Below are positions 1 through 59,786 of a stretch of 59,786 nt of DNA, piece by piece. This DNA comes from Candidatus Daviesbacteria bacterium GW2011_GWA1_41_61 (GTDB lineage Bacteria; Patescibacteriota; Microgenomatia; Daviesbacterales; UBA10151), in NCBI GenBank assembly GCA_000997385.1, contig LCBT01000001.1, positions 115,707 to 175,492 on the forward strand. Reading direction: 5' to 3'. How positions within the stretch are numbered: the first letter of the stretch is position 1; the number at the start of each line of letters is the position of its first letter. A program made the position numbers and the translations under genes. A model generated the notes under the pieces. The model was not told the DNA's origin. It did no database searches and saw only the letters and a list, made by a program, of their open reading frames with translations.

Positions 1-669
1 GGGATAAACTAAAGTCCAGTTTAAAAAGTGGCTCATTGACTCACTTACTATTACGTAAATCAACAAAGGAATCACCAAGAGTAAAGGCCCCAAAGCAAGC
101 AAAACTAGCTCCTTTAAATTAATCCTTTTGATAGTTAATATATAAAAAAACACAAAAGAGACTGAATACAGTAAAGCTGTTTGCTTGATCATTATTGCTA
201 ACCCCAAAAATAGTCCTGTTAAAAAAAGGTTTTTTATCTCTTTTTTTTCCAGCCACTGCAGGGCAAAGTAAAATCCTAAAAGTAATGGTAAAACAGTAGC
301 CAAATCAAACCACAACATGTTACCTTCTAAAAATGACTGTAAAAAGATAAAAATTCCCAAAAAGAAAAGGGAGATAAATAAACTGGCAGTGATTCTTTTT
401 AAAATAAAATAGAGGATGATATCAATTCCCAAAATCATTCCCCAGGTGAGGACATTTAATACCTCCACTTGATAATCAAAAAAGTTAAAAACAACTGCCA
501 AAAGCCACACCAACCCCGGAGGATAAGGGAAGATAAAATCCTTATATAAAGAAAAACCTGAGGTGAAAAGATAAGGGTAAGCCAACATCTCCGGCCAGGC
601 AGTAAAAATAAGCCGGCTTAAAAGAAGAAGATGTAAAACTAAAAGAGCTGGTAAAAAAAATTTGGTCAT
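1..669 (-). CDS. Integral membrane protein, N-terminal part only (runs off the left edge). Third copy of the unassigned YKDF-loop putative GT-C-like family.
   Basis: Not in the supplied ORF track. My own minus-strand translation from ATG 669-667 stays open to position 1 (223 codons: MTKFFLPALLVLHLLLLSRLIFTAWPEMLAYPYLFTSGFSLYKDFIFPYPPGLVW...). The ATG overlaps the TGA of the upstream methyltransferase (ATGA, 669-666). The loop SGFSLYKDF..YPP aligns with GLVMYKDFLNFYFPL (28328..29785) and SGLVIYKDFVTQYFPILY (29790..31289). Confidence 0.7.
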   Translation of the reverse strand, partial: MTKFFLPALLVLHLLLLSRLIFTAWPEMLAYPYLFTSGFSLYKDFIFPYPPGLVWLLAVVFNFFDYQVEVLNVLTWGMILGIDIILYFILKRITASLFISLFFLGIFIFLQSFLEGNMLWFDLATVLPLLLGFYFALQWLEKKEIKNLFLTGLFLGLAIMIKQTALLYSVSFVFFYILTIKRINLKELVLLALGPLLLVIPLLIYVIVSESMSHFLNWTLVYP

Positions 670-1493
670 TTTTTGCTAGCGATAACCGTTAAACTTGTTC
701 CCTTACCCAAAAGAGTCACTACAAGAGCTGGAATTAGTGTTAAAAAGTTGGTAAAAAAGCGCTTCTTCAAAGTAAAAAATGATTGCCAAAGTTCCAGCCA
801 GGGATTGCCATAATCCCAAATCCCGGAAGGATAAGAAAGCCTTAAAATTTTAAACCTAAGTTTCGGTAACATCTTTTTCAACGCCTTATCGGTAAAATGC
901 CACAGATGTTCTTGCGGTAGTAAATAGGGCCAGTTACCCCCCCATATTTTAGCTGATAAACTGCCGAAATTAGGAACATCAATCAGCAGCAACCCATCTT
1001 TTTTTAGTAACTTGTTGACTTTTTGTAAAACTTCTATGGGAGAAATTAGATGCTCCAAAGTATGGTTTAAAATTACTAAATCAAAGGATTGGTTTGGTAA
1101 TCTAACTTTCTCAAAATAATCAATAATTGTGACAATTCCCTTTTCCTGGGACTTGCGGGCAGAGGCTAGGGAAACCTCAATACCCAAAACCTCCCACCCC
1201 AATTTCTGAAATAAAGACAACATAACTCCGGTGGAAGAGCCTATTTCTAAAACTTTTCCGGCTTTAGAAGAATATTTACCCACTAAATTTATCCTTCTTT
1301 GAAAGATATTGGCAAATTGTCTTTCAAAGGCTTGGTAGCATTCATCCCGATGATAACTTTCATTTTGCTGGTTGGTACCTACCGTCCTGCCCAGTCCGCA
1401 GTTAGAACAGCGGTAGATAGTATAATTTTTTCCCTTTAAATAAATAGGGGTTTTGCTACGGCATATAAGGCAATAGGGACTATCTTTTTCCAT
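666..1493 (-). CDS. Class I SAM-dependent methyltransferase with an N-terminal zinc ribbon
   Basis: 275-aa ORF with ATG at 1493. It has a CxxC...CxxC ribbon (CLICRSK...CSNCGL), SAM motif I VLEIGSSTG, and later FDLVILNHTLEHL. The C-terminal tail is hydrophobic (LTLIPALVVTLLG). Confidence 0.8.
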   Translation of the reverse strand: MEKDSPYCLICRSKTPIYLKGKNYTIYRCSNCGLGRTVGTNQQNESYHRDECYQAFERQFANIFQRRINLVGKYSSKAGKVLEIGSSTGVMLSLFQKLGWEVLGIEVSLASARKSQEKGIVTIIDYFEKVRLPNQSFDLVILNHTLEHLISPIEVLQKVNKLLKKDGLLLIDVPNFGSLSAKIWGGNWPYLLPQEHLWHFTDKALKKMLPKLRFKILRLSYPSGIWDYGNPWLELWQSFFTLKKRFFTNFLTLIPALVVTLLGKGTSLTVIASKK

Positions 1494-1501
1494 TAAATTA
1501 A

Positions 1502-2128
1502 CTATTTTTTTAACTTTACTAACTTTAACATTCCTAAACTGAAAGTTTTGACTAAACTCACCTTAAAACCTAAACCTTCTGCCATATCTTCCAAAAGAGT
1601 GCCGTTAAAACTTTGCACATGAACATGTTTCCAGACTGGATAGCGGAGATTCCAGATAAACCAAATTACTTTAAACAGTAGATTATCAGTGGGGATTAAA
1701 ATCACTGCGTAACCATTCTTTTTCACCACCCGGTAAATCTGGGCTAAAACTTTCTGGGGGAAATCTACATGTTCAATCATCTCTATACAAAAAGCAGCCT
1801 CAAAGAAGTTATTTTTAAAGGGAAGTTTTTGAGCATCTCCCACTACAAAATAACCATTTTTTATTCTTTTTTTGGCCTTTTCAATAGCTTTTGGGGAAAT
1901 ATCCAAACCATAGATCTTATCAGCCCCAGTCCAATTAACAATTTTTTGAGTCAGTAGTCCGCTATGACAACCGATATCCACTATTTTACCGTTAACAGGG
2001 GTGGTTATTTTTGACAATTCATTAAATCTTCGCCAGTGCCAAAATTTCTGAAAAACATTTTTCTTTATAGCCAGATCATAATGATCAGGGGAAACACCTT
2101 CATGTAATTGAAGTAATGTCTTAGCCAC
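1502..2128 (-). CDS. Class I SAM-dependent methyltransferase (Methyltransf_11-like), translationally coupled to the upstream GT-C gene
   Basis: 208-aa ORF. The GTG start at 2128 overlaps the TAA of 2121..4859 by 8 nt. Motifs: IVDIGCHSG, GDAQKLPF, IEMIEHV, VKKNG. Paralogous to 19292..19936 and 46715..47338. Confidence 0.8.
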   Translation of the reverse strand: MAKTLLQLHEGVSPDHYDLAIKKNVFQKFWHWRRFNELSKITTPVNGKIVDIGCHSGLLTQKIVNWTGADKIYGLDISPKAIEKAKKRIKNGYFVVGDAQKLPFKNNFFEAAFCIEMIEHVDFPQKVLAQIYRVVKKNGYAVILIPTDNLLFKVIWFIWNLRYPVWKHVHVQSFNGTLLEDMAEGLGFKVSLVKTFSLGMLKLVKLKK

Positions 2129-4862: not shown

Positions 4863-6392
4863 TTAGATAGGATACCTTTTTTGGACAATAAAGTCACCAA
4901 TTTTTTCTTGGTGGGAAACTTTAGTAAAATAACTTTCCTCCCGTAAGATGTTTTCAATCAAAGAATCCCTGATTCCCCGGGTAGGTTCGATTATTAAAAA
5001 TCGGTTAGAAGGAAGTGTTGATTTGGCTGTTACTACCTGTAAATTTCCTGGGTATCCAGAGGCTGCCTCCCCTCCCCAGATAGGTAAATAGCCATACTTA
5101 CCTTTCCCATACCACTGGAAGAGGTAACTCCAGGTAGTGTTGATGGAAAAAGGCATGGTCACAGCATAAACGGTAAATTGTTGCCCCGAAGATGCTTGGT
5201 AAATATAGTCGAGTACTTTCTTTTCATCGGATAAAAGCATCCCGCTTTGAACATTGATGGTTGACATAGATCCTTTGCTGTTGATAGAAGTTATCAGCAT
5301 CAGATTGGATATGAGGGGAATAATTATTAACAAAATAGCCGCTGCATTGACCCTTTCCCAAACCTGGGTTAGCAGAAAACTTACTCCAATAAGTAAACTG
5401 ATTGAGGCTCCCACACTATAATAATAAAGCGGGGTGGGAGTAGTATTATTATAATAAGGTATAGTGCCGCTTAGAAACCAAACCACTAAAAATAAGGTTT
5501 TCAGACGGGAAGACTTCTTTATCAGCAGAACCAAAGATATAGCTATTAACAAAACCAGTGAAACTCCAGTTAAAGAATTCTCCGATAGTAAATTATCTCC
5601 TACTAAACGGTGGCTGATCAAATAGATATTGTCTAAAATTTGTTTCAAAGACACTTCCAAGGTACCTGACTGAGACAATAAATTAGAAAAAACAGCCACA
5701 GAGCGGAAGTGAAACTTTATCTCCGCTGCAATAAAGGTGGCGGTGGTTAAGGCAAAGGCTAAGATAGATAGCAGCCATACCTCTTTGTTTATTTTAGGTA
5801 AAGTTTTTCTAAAAATTAACAGTAGTAAGGCCAGTGGTATCAGCAAGGAGGTTAAAACAAACTCAAATTGGATAGATAATCCTAGCCCTGCTAAAGCTAA
5901 TATTAAACCCCTTGGCTCTTTCTTAAAAAAAAGCAACGCTAAGCCAAGGTAAAAAATAGTGACTGTCACCACTGCCAACGAAGGATGGTTGAAATATAAA
6001 GCATACTGAGTTTGCTCAAAGGAGAAGGCAAAAAACAGGGCTGAAAGTAGTCCCACCCGTTTATTAAAAATAACTGTTCCTACCCCAAATACTAAAAATA
6101 TAGTTCCGGCATTAATGATTCTTAAAAATGCTGCCACGAACTTCGGATCTCCACCTCCTAGATAATAAAGCGGAGCATAAAGATAGTAATAAAGAGGCCC
6201 GTGAAACCACCCATCAACACTAGTCGGCGGACCAACCACTCTGAACTCACCGAAAACAATCTCTAAAGAGGCAAAAGCATCCCGAGCCTGATCGAAACCA
6301 AAATAAATGTTGTTAGGAAAGTATAAAAAACGTAAAGTTAAGGCTAATACAAAGATTATGAAAAGTAGTAGGAGTATTTTCTTGTTTTGCAT
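4863..6392 (-). CDS. PMT_2/ArnT-like (GT39/GT83-type) GT-C membrane glycosyltransferase
   Basis: 509-aa ORF with ATG at 6392. Loop-1 motif FGFDQARDAF is followed by GPPTS..HGPLYYYLYAPL and many TM segments. It is a strong paralogue of 8640..10127 over its whole length, for example NTTWSYLFQWYGKGKYGY and FLIIEPTRGIR. Confidence 0.75.
   Translation of the reverse strand: MQNKKILLLLFIIFVLALTLRFLYFPNNIYFGFDQARDAFASLEIVFGEFRVVGPPTSVDGWFHGPLYYYLYAPLYYLGGGDPKFVAAFLRIINAGTIFLVFGVGTVIFNKRVGLLSALFFAFSFEQTQYALYFNHPSLAVVTVTIFYLGLALLFFKKEPRGLILALAGLGLSIQFEFVLTSLLIPLALLLLIFRKTLPKINKEVWLLSILAFALTTATFIAAEIKFHFRSVAVFSNLLSQSGTLEVSLKQILDNIYLISHRLVGDNLLSENSLTGVSLVLLIAISLVLLIKKSSRLKTLFLVVWFLSGTIPYYNNTTPTPLYYYSVGASISLLIGVSFLLTQVWERVNAAAILLIIIPLISNLMLITSINSKGSMSTINVQSGMLLSDEKKVLDYIYQASSGQQFTVYAVTMPFSINTTWSYLFQWYGKGKYGYLPIWGGEAASGYPGNLQVVTAKSTLPSNRFLIIEPTRGIRDSLIENILREESYFTKVSHQEKIGDFIVQKRYPI
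5090..5141. repeat. Left arm of a 52-nt inverted repeat, 48/52 identical to 9849..9900
   Basis: The reverse complement of 5090..5141 is aacactacctggagttacctcttccagtggtatgggaaaggtaagtatggct. Positions 9849..9900 read aacactacctggagttaccttttccagtggtatggaaaagggcagtatggct. I counted 4 mismatches by hand. Confidence 0.85.
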
Positions 6393-6400: not shown

Positions 6401-7252
6401 CTAATAACCGACTTTTTGCCAAGGCCAATATTTCCTCTTTAATTTTTTTAATTGTGTTTCAATGATAGCTCTGATGAAATAACGGGAGGGCATTTTCTCC
6501 CAGGGTGAAGCAACCGCAGATGGAGTTTGTTGAGAAAAAACTTCTGGATATTGGAAATCTTTAGGAAAAGTTAAACCAATTTCATATTTAAACTTGTGGC
6601 TTCTTTTGGGAACTTTTAAATCACTCTGACGGGATGATGATCTTAGTATATTGGTAAAATGCATATAGGGAGCATCGATGAATTTACGGTTTCGTTTAGG
6701 CCTTTGTTGGATTAAAGTTCCATCTTTATCATAAAGGCCCTGCTGACCATGAGGCTTGGCAAAATGTAAACCAGGAATTCCTCTTTTCATGGCCCGGATA
6801 TTGACATGACCATGATGTTCATCAATCTGATACCTGCCTGCCGATTCCTCTTGATAATGGTAAACATCGCCGATAACGTTAAAATAAGGAGAAACGATAC
6901 TTTCTAGAACGTCTCCTTCCCTTTGGATAGTATTTACCACTTCTTTAATTGATTTTTCCCACCACACCTCATCTCCATCGAGGATCATAAACCAATCACT
7001 TTTGGTTTGCTGGAGCATCTGCTGGCGAACTTTAGTAAACTCCTCGGGATCAACTTCTCCCACCTCTTTAAACTCCACTTTATCTCCCTTGATATTTTGA
7101 ATCTGTTTAATAATTTCTACTGTCTTATCGCTGCTACCGGTATCCCAAAGTAAAACCTTATCCACAAAATCCGCCACCGACATAACGGCATACCAAAGAT
7201 ACTTCTCTTCATTTTTAACTAAGGTATGTACCCAAATATTTTTCTTGCTCAC
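6401..7252 (-). CDS. GT2-family glycosyltransferase
   Basis: 283-aa ORF. The GTG start at 7252 is preceded by AAGGAG with a 6-nt spacer (reverse complement of 7253-7270: tcaagaaaggagataaaaGTG). N-terminal VHTLVKNEEKYL...LLWDTGSSDKT, and the DxD-like ILDGDEVW. Confidence 0.75.
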   Translation of the reverse strand: MSKKNIWVHTLVKNEEKYLWYAVMSVADFVDKVLLWDTGSSDKTVEIIKQIQNIKGDKVEFKEVGEVDPEEFTKVRQQMLQQTKSDWFMILDGDEVWWEKSIKEVVNTIQREGDVLESIVSPYFNVIGDVYHYQEESAGRYQIDEHHGHVNIRAMKRGIPGLHFAKPHGQQGLYDKDGTLIQQRPKRNRKFIDAPYMHFTNILRSSSRQSDLKVPKRSHKFKYEIGLTFPKDFQYPEVFSQQTPSAVASPWEKMPSRYFIRAIIETQLKKLKRKYWPWQKVGY

Positions 7253-8522
7253 TTTTATCTCCTTTCTTGAATTGATAGATTACCCAAACAGCAGGAACCA
7301 CAAAATTAAAAATATTACTAAAAAGGATCGTTAAGGAGGCACCTAGAATTCCCCATTTTGATATTAAGACCCATCCTAAAACTGCAGTGATTACCAGTTG
7401 CCCCAAAGCAGTCCAGGTAAAAAGCCGTGGTTTGGAAAAATAATAAAAGATTGCCTGATGGACAGGCAAAGATAAAAGAAAGACTAACTGGGCAATAAAT
7501 AAAATAATAAACGGAGTGACACTAGCTCTATAATCCTGACCATAAATTAAAGGGATAAAGTAAATCATCAAGGGGAGAAGTATAACTCCTCCTGTAGACA
7601 ATCCCAGTACTAAAAGTTGTAATTTTTTTAGATAGGTTATGGCTTTTTGTTGGCTGTCTAAACTACTCAGCTTAGGAGCAACAACCGTAGCTAAAGCAAA
7701 GACGAGTTGAGGCACTACTATAGTAAGCTGGACAGCCGCTGCATAAATTCCCACCTCAGTAGTGGTCAAAAGCCTGGCAGAGATAAAAGTATCCAGTCTG
7801 GAACCTATGGCTGTTAAAATTCCCACCAAAGCTACCCACTTACTATAATGGAGTAATTCCCTGCTTACTGACCGCTCCTGTTTAACAAACAAAAAGTTTG
7901 GGAGCAGGAATAGAGTAATAAAAAAGCCCAAAAAAGGAACAGTGATATAAGTAATTAGTGTTGTTTGAAGGTTGAAGATACCAAAGGCAGTTAAAGCTAA
8001 TATCGCTGTAAGTCTTAAACTGTTCATACTAATATTTACCAAACTCCAAGCCCAAAATTTTTGATAAGCCTGGATAGCATGAGTAGTTAAAGAAAAGAGC
8101 AGAGCTCCTCCAACTCCGATTAAGGCTAGGCGGAAGGGCTCAATAAATTCAGGCTTTAAAAAGATTGAATGGACAATTAGCGGGGCTAAAACCCAGCCCA
8201 GAGTAAGGATTGTAAACCAAACAGCTAACTTCACCTCTAAGCCAAGTTTGATAAACCTTAAAGCGGTATCTGATTTTGCAGGCTTACCCACAAAACGGAT
8301 GACGGCAGTATCAATTCCCAAATCAGCAATATCAGCAATAGTAGTAATGGCGGCGATGGCTACAGCCAAAGTTCCATAAACACTGGGGCCCAAGCTTCTG
8401 GCTACTATAATATAAAAAAATAGGCCTAATAAACCGTTAATTGCTGTCCCCCCCGAAGTTATTAAAAAATGATTAATTGTTTTGGAGGTAACAACTGACT
8501 TTAAATCCCTAATAAAAAACAT
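7215..8522 (-). CDS. Wzx-like oligosaccharide/polysaccharide flippase (MOP superfamily)
   Basis: 435-aa ORF with about 12 hydrophobic segments. The N-terminal GTAINGLLGLFFYIIVARSLGPSVYGTLAVAIA...DLGIDTAVIRF is typical of Polysacc_synt proteins. Its 3' end overlaps the downstream GT2 by 38 nt. Confidence 0.75.
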   Translation of the reverse strand: MFFIRDLKSVVTSKTINHFLITSGGTAINGLLGLFFYIIVARSLGPSVYGTLAVAIAAITTIADIADLGIDTAVIRFVGKPAKSDTALRFIKLGLEVKLAVWFTILTLGWVLAPLIVHSIFLKPEFIEPFRLALIGVGGALLFSLTTHAIQAYQKFWAWSLVNISMNSLRLTAILALTAFGIFNLQTTLITYITVPFLGFFITLFLLPNFLFVKQERSVSRELLHYSKWVALVGILTAIGSRLDTFISARLLTTTEVGIYAAAVQLTIVVPQLVFALATVVAPKLSSLDSQQKAITYLKKLQLLVLGLSTGGVILLPLMIYFIPLIYGQDYRASVTPFIILFIAQLVFLLSLPVHQAIFYYFSKPRLFTWTALGQLVITAVLGWVLISKWGILGASLTILFSNIFNFVVPAVWVIYQFKKGDKSEQEKYLGTYLS

Positions 8523-8639: not shown

Positions 8640-10127
8640 ATGAAGTTTTTGATAGCAATTTTTTTATTAGGGATAGCCTTAAGGTTTTTATATTTTCCTG
8701 ATAATGTTTATTTTGCCTATGATCAAGCCCGTGATTCCTATACTGCTTTAGAAATTTTAAAGGGAGATTTAAAATTAATTGGTCCACCCTCTTTTGCCAG
8801 TGATAAGCTCTTCCCTGGTCCCTTAATTTTTTATATTTATGCCCCTATTTATTGGCTGTTTGATAAAAATCCAGAAGCTATTTCAGCTTTTTTGCGTTTT
8901 TTTAACTCTTTGGGGATACTTTTAACCTTTGCCCTGGGAACGATTATATTTAACAAAAGAGTTGGTATACTGGCAGCTTTGCTTTTTGCCTTCTCATATG
9001 AACAAAGCCAATATGCCCTTTTTATCTCCCACCAACCACAAGCTGTGATTACTGTCTTACTTTTTTATCTGGGCTTAAGTTGGTTTATTTTTAAAAGTAA
9101 TCCCAAAGGATTGATATTGGCAGCCTTGGGCTGGGGGTTATCCATTCAGTTTCATTATGGTTATATCCTTTTAGGGATTCCTCTTCTCTCAACTATTTTA
9201 ATTTTTAGAAAAACACTTCCCAAACCTCAACTTAAATTTTTACTTTTAGCTGTAATCTCTTTAATTTTCACTTTATCCACCTTTATCATCACCGAAGCCA
9301 AGTATCATTTCTTTTCCTCCTATATTCAAAATTCCTCTTCCTCTTTTCATCTCTATCCCAAAGAAACCCTCTTTATCATTAACCGCTTTTTGCATGATAT
9401 TTTTATCGCCAATTACCGTCTCACTCCCTTTATAGCTGCAGTGACCATCATTATCTACACCTTAATCATGATCTTTAAAAAAGCTCTCCGCCAAAAGTTA
9501 CTATTTTTAACTATCTGGTTTTTAGGAGGGCTTACTCCCTATTTAATCTCCGGAGTTCCCAGTTACTATTATTCTGCTGCAGCTTCAGTTAGTTTACTAA
9601 TAGCTATTGCTTATCTAATAAGTCAACTCCTTCCCAAATACCAACTACTAAGTCTAGCCTTATTACTGATCATTATTGCTAACAACTTAAACCAAATTAT
9701 GACTATTAATAAAACTGGGGTCAACTCCGATATGGTTATCCAACCGGGGATGCTAATCTCAGATCAAAAAAAGGTCCTTGATTATATTTATTCTCAGGCT
9801 TCAGGACAACCATTTTCCATCAATACTCTAACTATTCCTTTAAATGTTAACACTACCTGGAGTTACCTTTTCCAGTGGTATGGAAAAGGGCAGTATGGCT
9901 ATATCCCAAACTTTGGAGGCGAAGCAGCAGAAGGATACTTGGGGAACTTTCAGGTAATCAAAGCCCGCTCTAATCTTCCAACTTTACAGTTTTTGATTAT
10001 TGAACCCACTTTAGGGATCAGGGAGGCATATCGAGATAACTTTTTTAGGGAAGAAAGTTACTTCACCAAAGTGACAGAAGAAAAAAAGTTCGGCTATTTG
10101 ACTGTCCAAAAACGTCAGAAATATTAA
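8640..10127 (+). CDS. PMT_2/ArnT-like GT-C membrane glycosyltransferase, inverted paralogue of 4863..6392
   Basis: 495-aa ORF. Motifs FAYDQARDSY, GPPSF...PGPLIFYIYAPIYW, FNKRVGILAALLFAFSYEQSQYAL and NTTWSYLFQWYGKGQYGY. Confidence 0.75.
   Translation: MKFLIAIFLLGIALRFLYFPDNVYFAYDQARDSYTALEILKGDLKLIGPPSFASDKLFPGPLIFYIYAPIYWLFDKNPEAISAFLRFFNSLGILLTFALGTIIFNKRVGILAALLFAFSYEQSQYALFISHQPQAVITVLLFYLGLSWFIFKSNPKGLILAALGWGLSIQFHYGYILLGIPLLSTILIFRKTLPKPQLKFLLLAVISLIFTLSTFIITEAKYHFFSSYIQNSSSSFHLYPKETLFIINRFLHDIFIANYRLTPFIAAVTIIIYTLIMIFKKALRQKLLFLTIWFLGGLTPYLISGVPSYYYSAAASVSLLIAIAYLISQLLPKYQLLSLALLLIIIANNLNQIMTINKTGVNSDMVIQPGMLISDQKKVLDYIYSQASGQPFSINTLTIPLNVNTTWSYLFQWYGKGQYGYIPNFGGEAAEGYLGNFQVIKARSNLPTLQFLIIEPTLGIREAYRDNFFREESYFTKVTEEKKFGYLTVQKRQKY
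9849..9900. repeat. Right arm of the 52-nt inverted repeat, 48/52 identical to the reverse complement of 5090..5141
   Basis: See 5090..5141. Identity extends to synonymous codon positions, unlike the neighbouring conserved protein blocks. Confidence 0.85.
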
Positions 10128-27312: not shown

Positions 27313-27313
27313 T

Positions 27314-49620: not shown

Positions 49621-49631
49621 TTCAGTTATCA

Positions 49632-53013: not shown

Positions 53014-53262
53014 ATGACCAAGATAAAAAAATTTGAATCTTTGGAGGTAAACATTAAAATTGATCAAGATGCTTGTATCTCTTGCGGCACCTGTGAAGTT
53101 TTTGCCCCCAAAACTTTTGAGTTTGATAAAAACTTAAAGACTCAAGTCAAAGAGGAACCTCATGACAACAAAGACAAAATTATCTCTGCAGCCGAAAGTT
53201 GTGCTGTAGAAGCTATAACCGTTATTGATAATAAAACCAGCAAAAAACTTTATCCTAAGTAA
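53014..53262 (+). CDS. Small single-cluster [4Fe-4S] ferredoxin
   Basis: 82-aa ORF with CISCGTC...(35 aa)...C. It is acidic and starts 30 nt after the radical SAM gene. Confidence 0.8.
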   Translation: MTKIKKFESLEVNIKIDQDACISCGTCEVFAPKTFEFDKNLKTQVKEEPHDNKDKIISAAESCAVEAITVIDNKTSKKLYPK

Positions 53263-54331
53263 GAACAGTTAACCCGAATTGGCCTTCATTAAATTGCCCA
53301 AACTTTTTAACTTTTTGACAAACTGTTTCCACTTCTTTTAAAGAAAGCCCCGGGTAAAGAGGCAGGGTCACTACCCTGTTGCCAACATACTCCGTTACCG
53401 GCAAGGAGGGTGTTTTATACTCTACAAAAGCTGGGGATTTATGTAACGGTAAGAAATGGAAAGAACAAGAGATCCCTTGGGCTTTAATATATGCCATAAA
53501 TTTATCCCGCTGTTCCACTAAAATAGGGTACAAGTGAGTCCCTTGATTTTTTAAACCCAATAATTGATTATAACGGGAAATAATCTGTTTTCTTTTTTCC
53601 TCCATTCCCTCTAATTTTTGCAGTTGTACCCGCCCCATGGCTGCCAAAAGATCAATGGTATTAAATTTATAACCGCAAAATTCCACTTCATAGCGCCAAT
53701 TACCACCAGGAGCATAACGTTTCCAAGCATCATGTGATAAACCATGCAGCCTGGCTTTAACCAGCCATTTAGCCATCTCCTCATCATCAGTAGTAATCAT
53801 TCCTCCTTCAGCGGTAGTTAGATTTTTGGTAGCATAAAAAGAATAACAAACTAAATTTTCTGATCTGTGTTTTGGGGCAATCCGGTGAGCGCTATCTTCT
53901 AGAACTTTAGTCTGAAAATCAGTTTGGGCTAAGTTACCGGCATAGTGAATAGGAATCACCGCTTTAGTTTTTTTGCTTAATTTTTTCTCTACCGACTTTA
54001 GATCAATAGTAAAATCATCGGCTTTAATATCCACAAAGATAGGGGTGGCTCCATTATGGACTATGACATTGGCAGTAGCAGCAAAAGTAAAAGAAGGAAC
54101 TATCACTTCATCACCTCGTCCTACACCTAAAGCCTTTAAAGATAGAAATAAGGCACTGGTACAACTGTTGACTGCCACAGCCCATTTTGCTCCCACATAC
54201 TCGGCAAACTCTTTTTCAAAAGCTATTGTCTCTTCCCCCATGGTCAGCCATCCGCTTCGCAGTATTTTGGTAACTGCGGTAATTTCCTTTTTGTCTATAA
54301 AAGGTTTGGCAAAAGCGATTGTTCTTTTCAT
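53255..54331 (-). CDS. DegT/DnrJ/EryC1/StrS-family PLP-dependent sugar aminotransferase
   Basis: 358-aa ORF. Motifs KPFIDKKEI, VNSCTSAL, VIVPSFTFAATAN, EDSAH, SFYATKNLTTAEGG (PLP lysine) and HGLSHDAWKRY...YKFN. The 3' end overlaps the ferredoxin gene by 8 nt. Confidence 0.9.
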   Translation of the reverse strand: MKRTIAFAKPFIDKKEITAVTKILRSGWLTMGEETIAFEKEFAEYVGAKWAVAVNSCTSALFLSLKALGVGRGDEVIVPSFTFAATANVIVHNGATPIFVDIKADDFTIDLKSVEKKLSKKTKAVIPIHYAGNLAQTDFQTKVLEDSAHRIAPKHRSENLVCYSFYATKNLTTAEGGMITTDDEEMAKWLVKARLHGLSHDAWKRYAPGGNWRYEVEFCGYKFNTIDLLAAMGRVQLQKLEGMEEKRKQIISRYNQLLGLKNQGTHLYPILVEQRDKFMAYIKAQGISCSFHFLPLHKSPAFVEYKTPSLPVTEYVGNRVVTLPLYPGLSLKEVETVCQKVKKFGQFNEGQFGLTVLT

Positions 54332-55897
54332 CTAAATTTGTTGGAAAACGTCTGGGTCTGGTATTTTAGTTAGAAGCGGTTTACCCGGGTCATTTCTTAA
54401 GTGACTGGCGGGAATTTTACCATAAGTTGGTAAGATCTTAGTTAACTCTTGAATAATACCGCAGCGGTCTTGGGTCTGTGATAAAACAATAAGACGTCCT
54501 AAAGTAGCCAGCAAAGCCTTATCATCAATCTTTAAAACATTTTTAGTAACAAAGATCAAGTTGTTAGATGTCTTTTTGATCTCCTCTTCTTTGGCTAAAA
54601 CCTCCTCGAAAATTTTCTCTCCCGGACGTGTACCAATAATCTTGATGGGAATTTCTTTTTCCGGCTCAAACCCAGCCAGTCTAATCATCGTTTTAGCCAG
54701 ATCCATGATTTTCACCGGCTCTCCCATATCTAAAACAAAGATCTCTCCCCCCTTCCCCATCTTAGCAGCCTGAAGAATCAACTGTACAGCCTCAGGAATG
54801 CTCATGAAAAAACGCACCATTTCCGGGTGAGTGACTGTCACCGGTCCGCCGCGGGCAATCTGTTTTTGAAAAAGAGGTACTACACTGCCATTACTCCCCA
54901 TGACATTGCCAAAACGGACACTACTGTATTTAGTTGAATAAACTTTATTAAAATAACGAATCAAAAGTTCAGCAAAAGCTTTTGTAGCTCCCATAACAGA
55001 GGTGGGATTAACAGCCTTATCAGTAGAGATAAAAATAAATTTCTCTGCCTTTTTTTCACCAGCAATTTCTGCCAAAATTTTAGTCCCATAAATATTATCT
55101 TTGACAGCTTCCTCCGGATGCTCTTCCATCAAAGGAACATGTTTGAAAGCAGCTGCATGAAAGATAACCTGAGGAGTAAATTTGTCAAAAACCCACTCTA
55201 CCTTAGCTCTATCTTGAATGTTTCCCACTACCATCTTTTGCTTAACCCGGTTTTGATGGTCTGAAAGTTCCTGAGACAGCTCAAACAACCCATTTTCCCA
55301 CCAGTCAAACATCACCAAGATCTCTGGCTCAAATTGGGCTAACTGTCGAGATAATTCCGAACCGATAGAGCCTGCAGCACCGGTGACTAAAATTCTTTTA
55401 CCTTTAAAAATCTTTTTTAGCTCTGTTTGCTCGGACTTTAAAATAGCTCTACCTAAAACATCTTCTATGGAAACTGAACGGACTGATTCAAGATGCACTT
55501 TTCCCCTGACAATTTCTAAAGTCCGCGGCACAATACGGAAAGTCACTTTAGCCTTTTGGCAGCTGTTAACAATAGAGCGGATTAAACTACCTTGGGCAGA
55601 GGGGATGGCGATAAAAACGTTTCCTACTTCATGTTGAGAGATTAAGTTCTCCAGTTGACTGGTTTTTCCAATTACCGGAATCCCTTTAATCTTCTTTCCC
55701 TGTTTAGTTTCATTGTCATCAATAAAACCGGTAATTTTATAACCTAAGGAGTGATATCCTTTTAACTGATCAACTAACTCTTTGCCAGCCACGCCGGCAC
55801 CAACAATAATTGACCTTTTGTTGCGAACTTGCCTGTCAACCATAAAGTTTACTCTATCACTATATCGGAGTGATGTCCAGAGATTTCGTCTGCCCAT
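54332..55897 (-). CDS. CapD/PglF/WbpM-type NDP-sugar 4,6-dehydratase (polysaccharide biosynthesis protein), soluble form
   Basis: Motifs IIVGAGVAGKEL, ILVTGAAGSIGSEL, FHAAAFKHVP and STDKAVNPTSVMGATK. There is no N-terminal TM block. An alternative ATG at 55843 (MVDRQV) would remove the 38-nt overlap with the GT4 gene. Confidence 0.85.
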   Translation of the reverse strand: MGRRNLWTSLRYSDRVNFMVDRQVRNKRSIIVGAGVAGKELVDQLKGYHSLGYKITGFIDDNETKQGKKIKGIPVIGKTSQLENLISQHEVGNVFIAIPSAQGSLIRSIVNSCQKAKVTFRIVPRTLEIVRGKVHLESVRSVSIEDVLGRAILKSEQTELKKIFKGKRILVTGAAGSIGSELSRQLAQFEPEILVMFDWWENGLFELSQELSDHQNRVKQKMVVGNIQDRAKVEWVFDKFTPQVIFHAAAFKHVPLMEEHPEEAVKDNIYGTKILAEIAGEKKAEKFIFISTDKAVNPTSVMGATKAFAELLIRYFNKVYSTKYSSVRFGNVMGSNGSVVPLFQKQIARGGPVTVTHPEMVRFFMSIPEAVQLILQAAKMGKGGEIFVLDMGEPVKIMDLAKTMIRLAGFEPEKEIPIKIIGTRPGEKIFEEVLAKEEEIKKTSNNLIFVTKNVLKIDDKALLATLGRLIVLSQTQDRCGIIQELTKILPTYGKIPASHLRNDPGKPLLTKIPDPDVFQQI

Positions 55898-57041
55898 TTT
55901 GTATCATTGTCAGTAAACTCTCCGCCGAAACATTAACATCAAAAATCTCCGCCGCCTTCTTAGTTTTTTGTTGGTAAGGTCTAATTAATACTCTTCCTTT
56001 TTTGATAACATCTTTTAATATTACCGCCAATTTTCGACTATCTTCCCGGGGGAAAGAAAAGCCTACTCCATACTTTTTTACCAGCTCGACCATATCTCCC
56101 ACTTCCGCTACAATTACCGGCAAATTAGCTTTCATGCTCTCCGAAAAAACCAAAGGGATACTATCGCTTCGGGAAGGGATGACCAACCAATCACTTAATA
56201 AAAGACGGTTGTAGATTAATTTGGGGTCATTAACATTTCCATAAAAAACCACTTTTTTCTGCAAACCTAAGTCTGAAATTTTTTCCTTTAAACTGGGTAG
56301 AAGTGAACCATCACCTAAACAATGCAGTTCAAAATCTAAATCCTTAACTTTAGAGATAGCCTCAATTAAAACATCCAATCCTTTGACCGGCTCCATTCTT
56401 CCCAAAAACATCAATTTTAAAGGTCCTTCTTTTTTAACCGTTAATTTTGATTGGTGAGGCATTTGACTGGCCGAAGGAAGAAACTGGCAGTGGCGTTTAG
56501 CAAGTTTGCCAGTTTGTCTGGCCAGATCGATCCCATCAGCTATAATAAACTTAGCTTTCTTTAGGGCTATTTCAATCAGTGTTCCTAAGATTGGATAACG
56601 GGCATAAATATAGATATCAGAACCTAAAGCCCAAATAGTGTAAGGCACCATTTTAACAATATTGGCCCAAAGGGCAAAAACTCCTGCCGGGAAAGCCCAC
56701 ATGGCAATACAAAAATCAATCTTATAATCCTTACAAAAACGACTTGTCGCCCTAAATCCTAAAACAAGCAGACTGAAAAATAACACCCAGTCTAAAGGAT
56801 TAAAAAATTGAATCTGTCCCAGTTTTTTCTTGCCGCCGATTGGGGAAAACCAAGTCACCGGCACGACATCCTTCTCACTTTTTCCTCCGGCATCCAAACA
56901 TAAGACAAAAACTTGATGGCCTAATTTTTGAATAGCATGAGCTATATCATAAACAAAAATACCGGCATTTTGGCGGTCATCTTTACTGGCAGGATAGTTA
57001 TGAGTGATCAGGCCAATCCTCATTGATAAATATTCTAGCAT
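55860..57041 (-). CDS. GT4-family (group 1) glycosyltransferase
   Basis: Motifs MRIGLITHNYP, FLGRMEPVKGLDVL and IPSRSDSIPLVFSESMKANLPVI (E-x7-E region). An alternative start lies at 57023. Confidence 0.8.
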   Translation of the reverse strand: MLEYLSMRIGLITHNYPASKDDRQNAGIFVYDIAHAIQKLGHQVFVLCLDAGGKSEKDVVPVTWFSPIGGKKKLGQIQFFNPLDWVLFFSLLVLGFRATSRFCKDYKIDFCIAMWAFPAGVFALWANIVKMVPYTIWALGSDIYIYARYPILGTLIEIALKKAKFIIADGIDLARQTGKLAKRHCQFLPSASQMPHQSKLTVKKEGPLKLMFLGRMEPVKGLDVLIEAISKVKDLDFELHCLGDGSLLPSLKEKISDLGLQKKVVFYGNVNDPKLIYNRLLLSDWLVIPSRSDSIPLVFSESMKANLPVIVAEVGDMVELVKKYGVGFSFPREDSRKLAVILKDVIKKGRVLIRPYQQKTKKAAEIFDVNVSAESLLTMIQNGQTKSLDITPI

Positions 57042-57754
57042 TTCTTCCCAACTAAGATAATGTGGGAAAATGGTTTCCCCCGATGGGCTTCAATTACTTG
57101 GACATCAAACCCTATTTTTTCTAAAAACACCCGCCACTGCTCTCCTGTCCGGTAATAAATTTTTGGCGAAACAATTTTACCTTCAAATAGGATGGGAAAG
57201 ATCAAAATATCGACAATCCAGGTAAGAAGATATTTTAAAAATGGTTTTCTGTCAATTTCCACGATAACCAACTCTCCTCCCTTCTTTATCTTATTTTGAC
57301 ACTCTCTGAGAACAGTTTCCTGATCCTTAAAGGAAGGTAAGTGATGGAGAAGATGAACCATTAAAATCACATCTGAGGGAGGCAGCAGCTGTTTCAAGAC
57401 ATCTCCTTCAACAAACTTGGTATTGTCGAGTCCCTTATCAGCTAGTTCTATCCGGGATAAATTTTTGTCAATGCCGATAATCTGCCGGGTGGAAGCTTTT
57501 AAAGCTAAATAATTAGTTACCAAACCGTCTCCGCATCCCAAATCCGCTATCAAACCATTCTTGGGAACCATTTTTTCCAGTAACTCTAAAGGAGTATCCC
57601 AAATGCGGATCTTAGCAAAAAGCTCACCAAAACCTCCTTTCGCATAAAGTTTACTTACCTGAACAAAATTGGAAGAGCTTTTCTCTTTTTTTTCCAGGCG
57701 AAAGAGTAGGCCAAAAAAAATACTTAGAAGGAACTGTAATATTTTTTTAATCAT
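57035..57754 (-). CDS. Class I SAM-dependent methyltransferase with an N-terminal membrane anchor
   Basis: 239-aa ORF. The N-terminus ILQFLLSIFFGLLFRL is hydrophobic. Motifs IADLGCGDG, VILMVHLLHHL and KKGGELVIVE. It overlaps the upstream GT2 stop by 8 nt (ATGATTAA). Confidence 0.8.
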   Translation of the reverse strand: MIKKILQFLLSIFFGLLFRLEKKEKSSSNFVQVSKLYAKGGFGELFAKIRIWDTPLELLEKMVPKNGLIADLGCGDGLVTNYLALKASTRQIIGIDKNLSRIELADKGLDNTKFVEGDVLKQLLPPSDVILMVHLLHHLPSFKDQETVLRECQNKIKKGGELVIVEIDRKPFLKYLLTWIVDILIFPILFEGKIVSPKIYYRTGEQWRVFLEKIGFDVQVIEAHRGKPFSHIILVGKKC

Positions 57755-58475
57755 ATTTACCCTGCCAATTATTGATCTTAATCTTCATCAGCTCACCTAA
57801 AGTCTTAACCACCGCATCGGTCAGTTTTACCTTAGAACCAGCATAGTGGCTCCAGCGGACCGGTATTTCTTTAATAGAGAACCCTAATTTAGAAGCTATA
57901 AACAACACTTCGGCATCATAACCCCAACGGTTGATAAGCTGCCTCCCAAAAATTGGTTTAATGACTTTTTGGGAAAATAGTTTAAATCCGCAATTAGTAT
58001 CCTTAACTGATGGTAACAAAATTAACCGCAACATTTCATAGTAAATATCTCCTAAAAGGGTCCGATAGCGAGCCGGCATCCGGCCTAATATTTTTTCTTT
58101 TAATCTACGCGACCCGATAACAATGTCATACTGACCAATATGCTGGGTTAAAAGATCGAGCTCTTCAATGGGAGTAGACAAGTCACAATCGGTCATCAAT
58201 ACTAATTTACCCAAAGCTTGTAGCATGCCACTTTTAACAGCCGCTCCTTTACCCCGGTTTTTAAGATGGCGGCATAAGCGGATATAGCTGTTTTTATGTT
58301 TATAACTTTCCAAAATGGCCCAGGTTTTATCTTTTGACCCATCATCAACTAAAATAATCTCCCAGTTTAATTTCTTTTTTTTAAAATAGTCGATAATTTT
58401 ATCCAGGTTAGCTGGTAAACGCTTCTCTTCGTTATAAACAGGTATAACCACTGACAAATCAATTTGACTTTTCAT
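57747..58475 (-). CDS. GT2 polyprenyl-phosphate glycosyltransferase (dolichyl-P-glucose synthase/ALG5- and ArnC-like)
   Basis: Motifs LSVVIPVYNEEKRL, IILVDDGSKDKT, NRGKGAAVKSG and MTDCDLSTP. Confidence 0.8.
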   Translation of the reverse strand: MKSQIDLSVVIPVYNEEKRLPANLDKIIDYFKKKKLNWEIILVDDGSKDKTWAILESYKHKNSYIRLCRHLKNRGKGAAVKSGMLQALGKLVLMTDCDLSTPIEELDLLTQHIGQYDIVIGSRRLKEKILGRMPARYRTLLGDIYYEMLRLILLPSVKDTNCGFKLFSQKVIKPIFGRQLINRWGYDAEVLFIASKLGFSIKEIPVRWSHYAGSKVKLTDAVVKTLGELMKIKINNWQGKYD

Positions 58476-59499
58476 TTCTTTTTAAATCTCCTTCTACCCT
58501 TTTAAAATCACCAAAATGTTTCCTCCAATCAACCCCATGCATCGCCCAAGCAAAAAGCTCATCATCACCCACTACTCTCATCTTCTGAACTAGACTTCTT
58601 TTGGACAAAATTTTCGGTAAGTTAAAGACATTCCACAAAATGGCCCGAAATACCATGAAAAAATTGTTTAGGTTTCTCCTTAAAAGAAAAACTACCGCAA
58701 TACCAACGGAGATAAAAAGATGGGAGGTAAACACTGTCAATAAATTTTTAGTTTCTAAATTTTGAATCAGAGAGCAGATTCTATTTTTATAGTAGTGATA
58801 GTTGATATCAAAGACATCTAATCTCTTGATGGTAAATCCTACTTTATGATAAATTTTTACTTGAGGATAAAAAAGCACTTTATATCCTGCTAACCAGACT
58901 CTCCAGCAAAAATCACTCTCTTCAAAATAAGATACAAAGTCCTCATCAAATAGCCCCACTTTATCTATCACCTCTTTCCTAATCAACATACAAGCTCCTT
59001 TGGCTGAAAAAATTTCTCTTTCTTTACTAAAGGCAACTCCATCTTTTTCTAAAAATCCCCAATGATCCCAAAAACCGATTTTTGTCAAAAACGACCCCGC
59101 ATTATCCAGATAATCCGGCTTGTCCATTAAACAAATCTTGGGTTGAAGTACCCCCAGAGATGGATCGGCCTCCATTTTGGTGACCATTTTAGACAAAAAA
59201 TTTGGCTCTACCATAGTATCGTTATTGAGAAGTAATAAATATTTTCCCTGGGCTTTTTTTGCACCCTGGTTATTTGCCAAAGCAAATCCTAAATTGAGAT
59301 TATTTTGAATAAGCTGGTTTCTTTTATAAGGTAATTTAACTTGAGTAACTAGAAGCTGACTGTCATCAGAAGAACCATTATCCACTACTATCAGTTCCCA
59401 GTTTTGATAGTCAATCTTGGAAAGTGACTGAAGGCAATTTTTAAAGACCTCTCCCCCGTTCCAATTAATAATAATAACTGAAACTAAAGACTTACTCAT
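58459..59499 (-). CDS. GT2-family glycosyltransferase (rhamnosyltransferase-like architecture)
   Basis: Motifs VSVIIINWNGGE, LIVVDNGSSDDS, NLGFALANNQG and LLLNNDT. A hydrophobic segment lies near the C-terminus. Confidence 0.8.
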   Translation of the reverse strand: MSKSLVSVIIINWNGGEVFKNCLQSLSKIDYQNWELIVVDNGSSDDSQLLVTQVKLPYKRNQLIQNNLNLGFALANNQGAKKAQGKYLLLLNNDTMVEPNFLSKMVTKMEADPSLGVLQPKICLMDKPDYLDNAGSFLTKIGFWDHWGFLEKDGVAFSKEREIFSAKGACMLIRKEVIDKVGLFDEDFVSYFEESDFCWRVWLAGYKVLFYPQVKIYHKVGFTIKRLDVFDINYHYYKNRICSLIQNLETKNLLTVFTSHLFISVGIAVVFLLRRNLNNFFMVFRAILWNVFNLPKILSKRSLVQKMRVVGDDELFAWAMHGVDWRKHFGDFKRVEGDLKRNEKSN

Positions 59500-59786
59500 C
59501 TTTCAATCTCCCGATTAAATACCCTAACCCTCCACCGATAGTTTCCGCAAGCAACATTACCATCATGCCAAAAGATATCACCGGGTGAAAAATAATCTTT
59601 TTCCATTGACGGTAAAAAGCCGGCCTTAAAAAATAAACTGTTTTTTGGTTAAGGGGAAAAATCTGTTGTTTTTTAAGATATTTATGGGCTGACAAACCAT
59701 AATAATATTTTCTTTTAGCCAGCTTTATTAATGTCGGGCAATCTTCATTATGTAAGATAAAACTTTTTATCCTGCCTGGTGGATAT
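59492..59786 (-). CDS. C-terminal fragment of a further probable GT2 glycosyltransferase (start lies beyond the right edge)
   Basis: The track lists only a 67-aa TTG-started piece. My translation shows the frame stays open to the window edge (YPPGRIKSFILHNEDCPTLIKLAKRKYYYGLSAHKYLKK...). The H-N-E...RKYYYG tail resembles the C-terminal region of 27314..28267. The stop overlaps ATG 59499 (ATGAGTAA). Confidence 0.55.
   Translation of the reverse strand, partial: YPPGRIKSFILHNEDCPTLIKLAKRKYYYGLSAHKYLKKQQIFPLNQKTVYFLRPAFYRQWKKIIFHPVISFGMMVMLLAETIGGGLGYLIGRLKDE

Follow-up and report, generated by a model that had tools for sequence, protein, structure and literature searches.

Multi-component transmembrane glycosylation systems are made up of a GT-A/GT2 synthase, sometimes a small helper, a flippase and a GT-C glycosyltransferase; in the streptococcal example GacI/GacJ/GacK/GacL, GacI is paired with the small membrane helper GacJ, GacK is the Wzx flippase and GacL the GT-C (PMC8035078). 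Gram-positive and Gtr systems of this kind have a single GT-C in each module and between one and a few modules in a genome, with three GT-A/GT-C pairs in Bacillus subtilis (PMC8035078). We analysed a 59,786-bp stretch of DNA (hereafter the window) from Candidatus Daviesbacteria bacterium GW2011_GWA1_41_61 (contig LCBT01000001.1, positions 115,707 to 175,492), which belongs to the Microgenomates of the candidate phyla radiation (CPR) and in which 19-23 predicted GT-Cs lie side by side, the higher count including the flanks. In one CPR genome paper 20 glycosyltransferases of all classes were reported for the whole genome (PMC5220378), compared with 20 GT-Cs alone in 60 kb here. We consider it likely that the window represents the central part of a cell-envelope glycosylation island, native to this genome and at least 79 kb long, in which a transmembrane glycosylation system of several components has been multiplied.

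The locus resembles the Gram-positive CsbB/GtcA/YfhO, GacI/J/K/L and Gtr systems in its GT2 synthase with a small membrane helper (DUF2304 here), its Wzx (or GtrA) flippase, its GT-C, here predicted to act outside the membrane, and its YfhO-family member. It differs from them in that the synthases are fewer than the GT-Cs and methyltransferase genes are interleaved with GT-C genes. Furthermore, no GtrA match was obtained among the open reading frames (ORFs) scanned, which were those of at least 60 aa except for ORFs of 60-120 aa inside longer genes; a Wzx flippase and small membrane proteins without a family are present instead. With the mycobacterial arabinogalactan and lipoarabinomannan set (AftD, EmbA/B/C, AftA-C, PimE, Pmt) it shares many different GT-Cs, an AftD-like enzyme with β-sandwiches of the carbohydrate-binding module (CBM) type and a polymer built outside the membrane, as is the case there and is proposed here. 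However, the lineage here is Microgenomates and not Actinobacteria, and mycobacterial GT-C genes are scattered over a 4.4-Mb genome, unlike the present island. With PMT (GT39), TMTC (GT105) and ArnT-type PMT_2 proteins, the window proteins share a membrane domain with a DD/DE motif just after the first transmembrane segment (TM1) as well as Pfam PMT/PMT_2 matches, but they lack the MIR and TPR domains of PMT and TMTC, the TMTC-like group described below (family C) being bare or equipped with an F5/8 discoidin domain. The components are of known kinds, while their scale and arrangement are not described in the full-text literature searched, in which we found no account of such a locus or of a GT-C expansion in the CPR; this is absence of evidence only, and a first-pass annotation, made by a model from the letters of the window, had known of no characterised locus either.

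Census and identity of the GT-C genes

The window holds 41 tightly packed ORFs of at least 150 aa, with the minus strand predominating and a G+C content of 0.34-0.40 throughout. In a Kyte-Doolittle scan 20 polytopic ORFs of at least 400 aa were found (404-1030 aa, 7-13 hydrophobic segments each), and their coordinates agree with those of the first-pass annotation apart from two starts slightly shifted by upstream TTG codons. Nineteen of them were assigned to the GT-Cs, the remaining one being a Wzx flippase (7215; genes are named by their first coordinate, Table 1), and a twentieth GT-C is truncated by the left window edge, with 223 codons present. The initial count of about 20 GT-C genes is thus reached with the edge fragment, one of the polytopic ORFs having turned out to be the flippase. 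The 19 complete ORFs comprise 12,402 codons or 62.2% of the window (12,625 codons and 63.4% with the fragment), close to the roughly 60% and 12,600 codons first estimated, and the glycan-related share of the window is about 92% once accessory genes are counted.

The identity of these proteins was examined by Pfam and NCBIfam scans, BLAST within the window, profile-profile comparison with hhalign, profile searches of the PDB, and AlphaFold (AF2) models submitted to Foldseek. Besides the edge fragment, ten complete genes gave Pfam GT-C matches. Eight of these genes are above cut-off (4863, 8640, 17869 and 38752 in PMT_2; 44436 and 47380 in PMT; 10134 in Mannosyl_trans2, that is PIG-V; 15409 in YfhO), one is borderline and one weak, and the PMT_2, YfhO, DUF2723/TMEM260-like and PIG-V/Mannosyl_trans2 families that the first-pass annotation had named were all found directly in this way. 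The nine other GT-C ORFs have no Pfam GT-C match, and NCBIfam gave only weak hints for them; hhalign probabilities of 82-100% link these members to GT-C profiles, and PF13231 and PF10131 in homologues add further links. Four family profiles were used: A1 (the AftD-like family of 21826), A3 (the 2121 family), A5 (PMT_2-type) and A4. As judged from this 20 x 4 matrix the GT-C pattern is not a product of chance, because all 19 candidates reach at least 82% to at least one GT-C profile while the Wzx flippase (7215-8522), which served as negative control, reaches at most 8% to any. The latter value, together with a Polysacc_synt match, rules out the flippase itself as a GT-C.

Two representatives, 21826 and 24926, were modelled with AF2. 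Both models show a helical membrane bundle and both retrieve GT-C structures first in Foldseek. For 24926 (predicted template modelling score, pTM, 0.81) the top 29 PDB matches are all GT-C fold proteins, with DPY19, PglB, STT3, Pmt4, ArnT, Pmt1/2, AftB and a GPI-transamidase subunit among them, so that the structure comparison advised by the first-pass annotation returns AftD, PglB, ArnT, Pmt1/2 and others over the two models. PDB sequence searches gave no useful match for 2121 alone, nor for 44436 and 15409 alone. We regard the predicted identity of all 19 complete ORFs and the edge fragment as GT-C glycosyltransferases as supported at the sequence level, and for the two modelled representatives also by the predicted fold; it is not the case that most ORFs match no GT-C family or fold, an outcome for which the first-pass annotation had allowed.

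The motif that defines GT-Cs, DxD, DD or DE, lies in the first external loop shortly after TM1 (PMC6801728). An acidic residue is present at this loop-1 position in all 19 proteins, and the motifs quoted initially (FSQDDFF, FFQQDEW twice, YFWRDDY, YFWQDDS, FYSDDAIY, F[GA][FY]DQARD twice, EDWDS...HPPGYPLY and DTNFPLDP) were every one located just after TM1, within about 15-20 residues of the first hydrophobic segment. The acidic residue is the most conserved one in the families examined (A1, A3, A4 and A5), in whose alignments the loop-1 Asp is invariant or nearly so (D36, D39, D41 and D27, respectively). Summed over the 19 proteins, the tails preceding TM1 contain 37 K/R versus 4 D/E in 154 residues, and the first 20 residues after TM1 contain 18 K/R versus 44 D/E in 380 residues. 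Along with the homology to solved GT-Cs, this charge bias around TM1 fits an orientation with the N-terminus inside and loop 1 outside.

By sequence the GT-Cs fall into seven to nine families, and at least seven, where at least six had been claimed. These are the PMT_2 pair 4863/8640; the PMT-type 44436/47380 plus 38752; the PMT_2/TMEM260-like 17869 and 31915; the pair 28328/29790 together with the left-edge gene; the TMTC-like family C with five genes (19939, 24926, 34624, 36698 and 40872); the YfhO-like 15409/13501; the AftD/PTPS_related-like 21826/2121; and the PIG-V-like 10134. A PMT/PMT_2/TMTC-like supergroup takes in 15 of the 20. Since identities between paralogues range from 18 to 48% (48% for 4863 and 8640, 32% for 44436 and 47380), the paralogues are, on this measure, old divergences rather than recent duplications. 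Among the less obvious members, 10134 also matches PMT_2 with 23.9 bits and A5 with 82% in hhalign. The left-edge gene, which is complete in a contig of another assembly (L009, 10825-12213), reaches 95-96% to A4 and A5 and finds 29790 by BLAST at E 6e-9, the latter reaching 87-90% to the same two profiles. No Pfam match was obtained for 31915 itself. Of its 55 homologues the majority contain PF13231 and one has the NCBI name GT39, and the family hidden Markov model (HMM) of 31915 matches 17869 at 4e-12. A paralogue of 38752, 46% identical, lies in the right flank.

AftD-like, YfhO-like and TMTC-like members

Relatives of 21826 number 2627 at E≤1e-3 in a library of 1.84 billion proteins, and a 62-sequence profile matches Mycobacterium abscessus AftD (6W98, 6WBX) at E 3e-19 over three collinear stretches. 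Its AF2 model (pLDDT 92.3, pTM 0.90) retrieves AftD first (E 5e-17, TMq 0.51, with about 10% identity in the Foldseek alignment), followed by PglB, DPY19 and EmbA. In this model an N-terminal helical membrane domain, with helices to about residue 440, precedes a mixed α/β domain, which is followed by β-sandwich (CBM-like) domains and then a single C-terminal TM helix at residues 995-1025; the Foldseek matches include CBM4, CBM16 and a hyaluronan-binding module. AftD uses CBMs to bind its glycan acceptor, its residues K39, D41, E251, K361 and D474 are essential and lie around the putative active site, and its C-terminal TM region (TM14/TM15) forms a four-helix bundle that binds acyl carrier protein (ACP) via 4'-phosphopantetheine (10.1101/2019.12.22.885152). 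D36 of 21826 falls within one residue of AftD D41 by offset only, as the printed HMM alignment begins at AftD residue 47. In contrast to AftD, 21826 has 1030 instead of about 1400 residues, hence is about 400 aa shorter, and ends in one TM helix without the ACP-binding C-terminal TM region. Of the AftD/DUF3367 family named at first, a likeness to AftD stands, through the profile match to 6W98 and through Foldseek, but not a match to the Pfam DUF3367 model, which gave no match to 21826 at E≤0.01. The small gene 21434-21829 always lies 3' of the AftD-like GT-C, and the pairing is repeated in a relative locus (L014, 572-970); its product may be a partner subunit or a flippase.

In the second member of this group, 2121, a large C-terminal extracytoplasmic β-rich domain is followed by a final TM helix. 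Pfam returned no match in its membrane domain and only a sub-threshold Golvesin_C match at residues 676-751, and the PDB search with the family profile gave only weak CBM/S-layer-like matches in the ectodomain. However, PF10131 (PTPS_related) is matched by 12 of the 39 members of the 2121 family, and hhalign aligns A3 with A1 at 100% (E 1e-46, 844 columns); the nearly invariant D39 lies in 'WGDAP'. NCBIfam also links residues 288-433 of 2121 weakly, at E 2e-7 and well under the cut-off, to its model of the trehalose-lipid delivery protein MmpA. As regards the YfhO family, 13501 has no Pfam match; it is related to 15409 by BLAST (E 1.8e-10) and hhalign (97.4%, E 9e-12), with 95% to A1 and 94% to A3, and it is called YfhO-like rather than a demonstrated member because it is linked to YfhO only through 15409.

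A motif F.[QR]D[DE] is common to the five family C proteins. TPR is found in their remote relatives, one of which is named protein O-mannosyl-transferase by JGI and one of which has PMT_2, and all five window proteins reach 97.5-99.6% in hhalign to a profile built from TPR-bearing relatives only, against 0.5% for the Wzx flippase. For 19939 these values are 99.6% to the TPR-type-only profile and 99.8% to a family C profile built without it, while BLAST relates 34624 to both 40872 (E 1.7e-19) and 24926 (E 4e-10). Furthermore, hhalign matches the family C profile to that of 31915/PMT_2 at 97% (E 1e-10), and the DD motifs coincide in this alignment; a PDB search with the family C profile was dominated by TPR matches from the remote members. 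Pfam found no TPR in any of the five window proteins and, at E≤0.01, no DUF1736 (PF08409), one of the models named by the first-pass annotation; the 'F.QDD' group is instead related to the membrane domain of TPR-bearing, TMTC-like proteins. Two members have a C-terminal F5_F8_type_C (discoidin) domain instead, at residues 551-665 of 36698 (E 4e-12) and 656-776 of 40872 (E 3e-13), where the remote relatives carry their TPR repeats. Family C and the short AftD-like protein fail, in their predicted domain content, the defining features of TMTC (TPR, DUF1736) and of AftD (ACP-binding C-terminal TM region, Pfam model). The locus contributes several GT-C lineages not recognised by standard Pfam and NCBIfam models (9 of the 19 being without a direct GT-C match) and two new architectures, a TMTC-like membrane domain with discoidin and not TPR and a short AftD-like enzyme without the ACP-binding C-terminal region.

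When the longest starts are taken, ORFs overlap by 30 nt (15409/17869) and 59 nt (34624/36698). The true starts of 15409 and 34624 are probably downstream, because public gene calls use later ones (781 aa and 699 aa, respectively); for 15409 the start is probably near 17754.

Accessory genes and extent of the island

Table 1. Predicted features of the window, with coordinates, strand and supporting match (GT2 and GT4, glycosyltransferase families; MT, class I S-adenosylmethionine (SAM) methyltransferase)
Feature	Coordinates	Strand	Evidence
PMT_2-type GT-C, N-terminal 223 codons of 462-aa gene, edge-cut	1..669	-	PMT_2 36 bits (cut-off 26.1), PMT 25.1 bits
MT, C-terminal hydrophobic segment; stop overlaps start of PMT_2 edge gene	666..1493	-	Methyltransf_23 E 8e-27
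MT; start overlaps end of GT-C 2121-4859	1502..2128	-	Methyltransf_11 E 1.4e-22
GT-C, AftD/PTPS_related-like, 912 aa	2121..4859	-	homologue PF10131, hhalign to A1
GT-C, PMT_2, 509 aa, FGFDQARD	4863..6392	-	PMT_2 32.7 bits (cut-off 26.1)
GT2, 283 aa	6401..7252	-	Glycos_transf_2 E 1.2e-13
Wzx-type flippase, polytopic, not GT-C	7215..8522	-	Polysacc_synt E 4e-18
GT-C, PMT_2, 495 aa, FAYDQARD	8640..10127	+	PMT_2 34.9 bits
GT-C, PIG-V/Mannosyl_trans2-like, 404 aa	10134..11348	+	Mannosyl_trans2 24.4 bits (cut-off 22.4)
MT, directly 3' of GT-C 10134	11354..11953	+	Methyltransf_25 E 1e-11
MT, two C-terminal hydrophobic segments	11943..12704	-	Methyltransf_11 E 3.6e-20
GT2, polyprenyl-phosphate-sugar synthase type (ArnC/DPM1-like), 246 aa	12717..13457	-	NCBIfam ArnC E 3e-24, positions 8-223 of 316
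GT-C, divergent YfhO/AftD-like, 649 aa	13501..15450	+	BLAST and hhalign to 15409
GT-C, YfhO family	15409..17898	-	YfhO (PF09586) E 1.8e-31, 109.8 bits (cut-off 28.5)
GT-C, PMT_2/TMEM260-like, 476 aa, EDWDS ... HPPGYPLY	17869..19299	+	PMT_2 44.7, TMEM260-like 28.2, PMT 25.2 bits, all above cut-off
MT, overlapping end of GT-C 17869	19292..19936	+	Methyltransf_11 E 2.6e-24
GT-C, family C, 500 aa, FSQDDFF	19939..21441	-	hhalign
131-aa protein, 3-4 hydrophobic segments	21434..21829	-	no Pfam or NCBIfam match
GT-C, AftD-like, 1030 aa, DTNFPLDP, D36 invariant	21826..24918	-	AftD profile match, AF2/Foldseek
GT-C, family C, 558 aa, FFQQDEW	24926..26602	-	weak PMT_2 E 0.0097; hhalign 99.5% to TPR-type profile
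MT, overlapping start of GT-C 24926	26599..27345	-	Methyltransf_23 E 7.6e-19
GT2, 323 aa, C-terminal hydrophobic segment at about residue 299	27314..28285	-	Glycos_transf_2 E 6.5e-26
GT-C, borderline PMT_2, 485 aa, YKDF	28328..29785	+	PMT_2 25.8 bits (cut-off 26.1); hhalign 93% to A5
GT-C, paralogue of 28328, 499 aa	29790..31289	-	BLAST to 28328 E 3.6e-38
DUF5667 protein, 174 aa, N-terminal hydrophobic segment	31286..31810	-	DUF5667 E 2.5e-9
GT-C, divergent PMT_2/GT39, 525 aa, FYSDDAIY	31915..33492	-	homologue annotation, family HMM
GT2, PpgS-like polyprenyl-phosphate-sugar synthase, 225 aa	33558..34235	+	NCBIfam PpgS E 4e-54, 183 bits
DUF2304 small membrane protein	34240..34605	+	DUF2304 E 2.3e-17
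GT-C, family C, ~699-710 aa, YFWRDDY	34624..36756	-	hhalign 97.5% to TPR-type profile
GT-C, family C, 685 aa, FFQQDEW	36698..38755	-	hhalign 98.3%
GT-C, PMT_2/PMT, 706 aa, WDET	38752..40872	-	PMT_2 47.4, PMT 37.2 bits
GT-C, family C, 903 aa, YFWQDDS	40872..43583	-	hhalign 97.6%
GT2, AglJ/PpgS/dolichyl-P-hexose-like synthase type, 256 aa	43587..44357	-	AglJ E 1.7e-20, PpgS 3e-19, DolP-hexose transferase 4e-16; below cut-offs
GT-C, PMT family, 760 aa, HPDEG	44436..46718	-	PMT 39.7, PMT_2 29.9 bits
MT between two PMT genes, overlapping start of 44436	46715..47338	-	Methyltransf_11 E 3e-23
GT-C, PMT family, 750 aa, HTDEG	47380..49632	-	PMT 40.4, PMT_2 30.3 bits
DegT/DnrJ/EryC1 sugar aminotransferase	53255..54331	-	E 6e-94
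PglF/PseB-like UDP-GlcNAc 4,6-dehydratase	54332..55897	-	Polysacc_synt_2 E 2e-114; PseB model E 2e-55, below cut-off
GT4	55860..57041	-	Glycos_transf_1 E 8.6e-27
MT	57035..57754	-	Methyltransf_11 E 6e-13
GT2, PgfS/ArnC-like, 242 aa	57747..58475	-	PgfS E 3.5e-22, ArnC E 4e-20, below cut-offs
GT2, 346 aa, one hydrophobic segment	58459..59499	-	Glycos_transf_2 E 4e-26
GT2, C-terminal part of 273-aa gene, edge-cut	59492..59786	-	complete in L005 9187-10008, Glycos_transf_2

Four of the GT2s resemble polyprenyl-phosphate-sugar synthases (33558, 12717, 43587 and 57747). The PpgS match of 33558 is full length yet below the 370-bit cut-off, and 12717 also matches the dolichyl-P-hexose transferase and PpgS models, all below the equivalog cut-offs. 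The DUF2304 gene lies directly 3' of 33558, an arrangement like that of the mycobacterial PpgS-Rv3632-Rv3630 module. We take this to be the same pair as mycobacterial PpgS (Rv3631) with its DUF2304 neighbour Rv3632, and presumably also the same pair type as GacI/GacJ, GacJ being assumed to belong to DUF2304. Six of the eight SAM methyltransferase genes adjoin a GT-C gene, mostly via overlapping stop and start codons; a methyltransferase-then-PMT_2 order with a 4-nt overlap recurs in the right flank (L005, 5392-8189) and in a 31%-identity relative (L013, 14709-16783). No methyltransferase substrate can be named because only generic class I models match. The DUF5667-like secreted protein announced by the first-pass annotation was confirmed as a DUF5667 match.

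The island continues for at least 10 kb beyond both window edges. As had been supposed, both edges cut glycosylation genes, a PMT_2 GT-C on the left and a 273-aa GT2 on the right, and the flanking contigs (L009 left, L005 right) carry further GT-Cs, which brings the total to 23 in about 79 kb, the four flank GT-Cs being confirmed by hhalign. The left flank comprises the remainder of the cut gene, another PMT_2 gene (471 aa), GT4s, GT2s and a hexapeptide transferase; the right flank comprises two GT2s, a PMT_2 gene (672 aa), a methyltransferase, an LPG_synthase_TM protein, a further PMT_2-type gene of 654 aa and genes for radical SAM enzymes. The LPG_synthase_TM protein (L005, 4470-5390) is a stand-alone, MprF-flippase-domain-like protein of 306 aa that adjoins the methyltransferase and PMT_2 pair, and is a candidate flippase for lipid-linked sugars. 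A left-flank protein of 507 aa (L009, 15471-16994) has seven hydrophobic segments and FVDEEDN just after TM1; it has no hhalign link to any of the four GT-C profiles and was left out of the count, and it may be an even more divergent GT-C.

Most of the independent assemblies checked carry the window sequence with 100% identity, and all but one gapped scaffold (L003) match it to at least 99.99%; it is not an assembly artefact because independent assemblies agree in this way. Genes identical to these occur on contigs from Rifle groundwater as well as in GCA_000994545.1 and GCA_000994095.1, and the longest contig with such genes has 630,552 nt. The GT-C genes split in L003 were rejected as pseudogenes or phase variation, since a run of Ns (4113-4122) marks a scaffold gap. 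Gene lengths also differ in L007, L008 and L010. Syntenic GT-C blocks with conserved order occur in relatives at 31-45% identity and contain the AftD-like gene with the ~131-aa gene, PMT_2/TMEM260, the YfhO pair, a 2121-like gene, Wzx, GT2, methyltransferase and PMT_2. The closest homologues carry Daviesbacteria or Microgenomates names, and a cluster member on LCAB01000008.1 is labelled Candidatus Daviesbacteria bacterium, which bears out the CPR/Patescibacteria origin deduced initially from the letters. The locus is, on these comparisons, a stable lineage trait and not a mobile or hypervariable island, because related blocks exist in other species and the window yielded neither tRNA genes nor RNA families nor tandem repeats; mobile-element genes were not found there either. 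CAYWKL010000003.1, whose label 'uncultured Gammaproteobacteria bacterium' is probably wrong, has an island of the same type, in which two genes of family C are accompanied by an AftD-like gene of 44% identity, a 2121-like gene and Wzx.

Proposed route and alternative explanations

In the reading that we favour, that of a multiplied transmembrane glycosylation system serving the cell envelope, GT2s of the DPM1/ArnC/PpgS type would load sugars from nucleotide sugars onto polyprenyl phosphate at the cytoplasmic face, one of these loading GT2s being paired with the DUF2304 helper. A second branch, comprising the PglF-like dehydratase, the DegT aminotransferase, the GT4 and other GT2s, would probably assemble a lipid-linked primer oligosaccharide. 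The Wzx flippase, and possibly other small membrane proteins, would then translocate the lipid-linked sugars to the outward side of the membrane, where each of the 19-23 GT-Cs from at least seven families would use a polyprenyl-phosphate donor to supply an acceptor with a sugar, with the conserved Asp/Glu of external loop 1 as the predicted catalytic residue. By analogy with the mycobacterial arabinogalactan and lipoarabinomannan GT-C set, the enzymes together would form an assembly line that produces at least one complex surface polysaccharide or lipoglycan, which is probably methylated. We infer the polyprenyl-phosphate-linked donors from the neighbouring PpgS-, ArnC- and AglJ-like GT2s and the DUF2304 protein, and likewise the direction of transfer, the glycan acceptors and the role of the methyltransferases. 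Most acceptors are probably glycans, because several GT-Cs carry F5/8 discoidin or AftD-like β-sandwich ectodomains; by analogy with AftD these domains point to glycan acceptors for several of the enzymes.

Several points weigh against this reading. The GT2 matches to named NCBIfam equivalogs all lie below the cut-offs and do not indicate a sugar specificity. The window yielded no GtrA-type flippase, and neither a Wzy polymerase nor a ligase nor an initiating phosphoglycosyltransferase could be identified in it. The whole-protein positive-inside count on Kyte-Doolittle segments gave an ambiguous orientation, and neither the PMT_2-type profile A5 nor 44436 alone had a sequence-level match to solved structures. 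Furthermore, part of the set may act on proteins, because the characterised PMT, PMT_2 and TMTC relatives mostly glycosylate proteins or lipid A. It is conceivable, though we hold it to be on the whole unlikely, that most of the GT-Cs are PMT/TMTC-like protein O-glycosyltransferases which decorate secreted or surface proteins, such as S-layer proteins, pilins or DUF5667-type proteins, and do not build polysaccharides. The supergroup to which 15 of the 20 belong contains eukaryotic members characterised as O-mannosylating proteins (PMC6801728). The DUF5667 protein with its N-terminal hydrophobic segment is encoded within the island, and a protein O-mannosyl-transferase name occurs among the TPR-bearing remote relatives of family C. 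However, the window proteins are without the MIR and TPR domains of characterised protein O-mannosyltransferases, discoidin domains occur in two of them, and the likeness of the AftD-like and YfhO-like members is to enzymes acting on glycopolymers. Moreover, PMT_2 also takes in ArnT-type modifiers of lipids and glycans.

The gene order, with both strands used in about 11 short transcription blocks and a modular succession of GT2, methyltransferase and GT-C genes, would also suit a variable 'serotype' locus in which alternative Gtr-like modules are kept for antigenic or phage-receptor variation and few are in use at once, and Gtr-type and Gram-positive decoration systems are indeed modular (PMC8035078). 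We judge this improbable, given the identity of the locus in most independent assemblies covering it, the uniform G+C, the lack of tandem repeats, tRNA and mobile-element genes in the window, the scaffold gap that accounts for the split genes, and a block order kept in species at 31-45% identity. That many paralogues are catalytically dead or are scaffolds or transporters, so that the real investment in enzymes would be much smaller, could be argued from the nine members without a Pfam GT-C match and from the lack of a close characterised relative for any member; it appears very improbable to us, as the loop-1 acidic residue is kept in all 19 and is the most conserved position in the families examined, the ORFs are intact and tightly packed, and homologues number hundreds to thousands per family.

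Members of the CPR/Patescibacteria, whose envelope chemistry has hardly been described, combine a minimal metabolism with what is believed to be a life in attachment to other cells. A genome of about 1 Mb that devotes about 38 kb of one 60-kb stretch to GT-Cs would make surface glycans a major, selectable trait of the lineage. Along the line of the favoured envelope-polymer reading, a bolder proposal is that some two dozen GT-Cs, each adding a distinct, partly methylated residue, assemble the main envelope polymer of Daviesbacteria, and perhaps of many Microgenomates, on the outside of the membrane. The lipid-linked sugars would be methylated before export, because methyltransferase and GT-C gene pairs are tightly coupled, and the product would represent a new class of CPR surface glycan, possibly at the interface with the host cell. 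We offer this tentatively and think it doubtful; were it true, a mycobacterium-style assembly line would occupy at least 6% of a roughly 1-Mb genome. The locus provides concrete targets in the synthase with its DUF2304 protein, the AftD-like enzyme and the discoidin-bearing TMTC-like enzymes.

The stretch 49672-53262 within the island contains Fe-S housekeeping genes, namely an ArsR-type regulator, an IscS-like cysteine desulfurase and NifU, as well as genes for a small ferredoxin and a B12-binding radical SAM enzyme. Shortly beyond the right edge, two or three more radical SAM genes are found (L005, L007).

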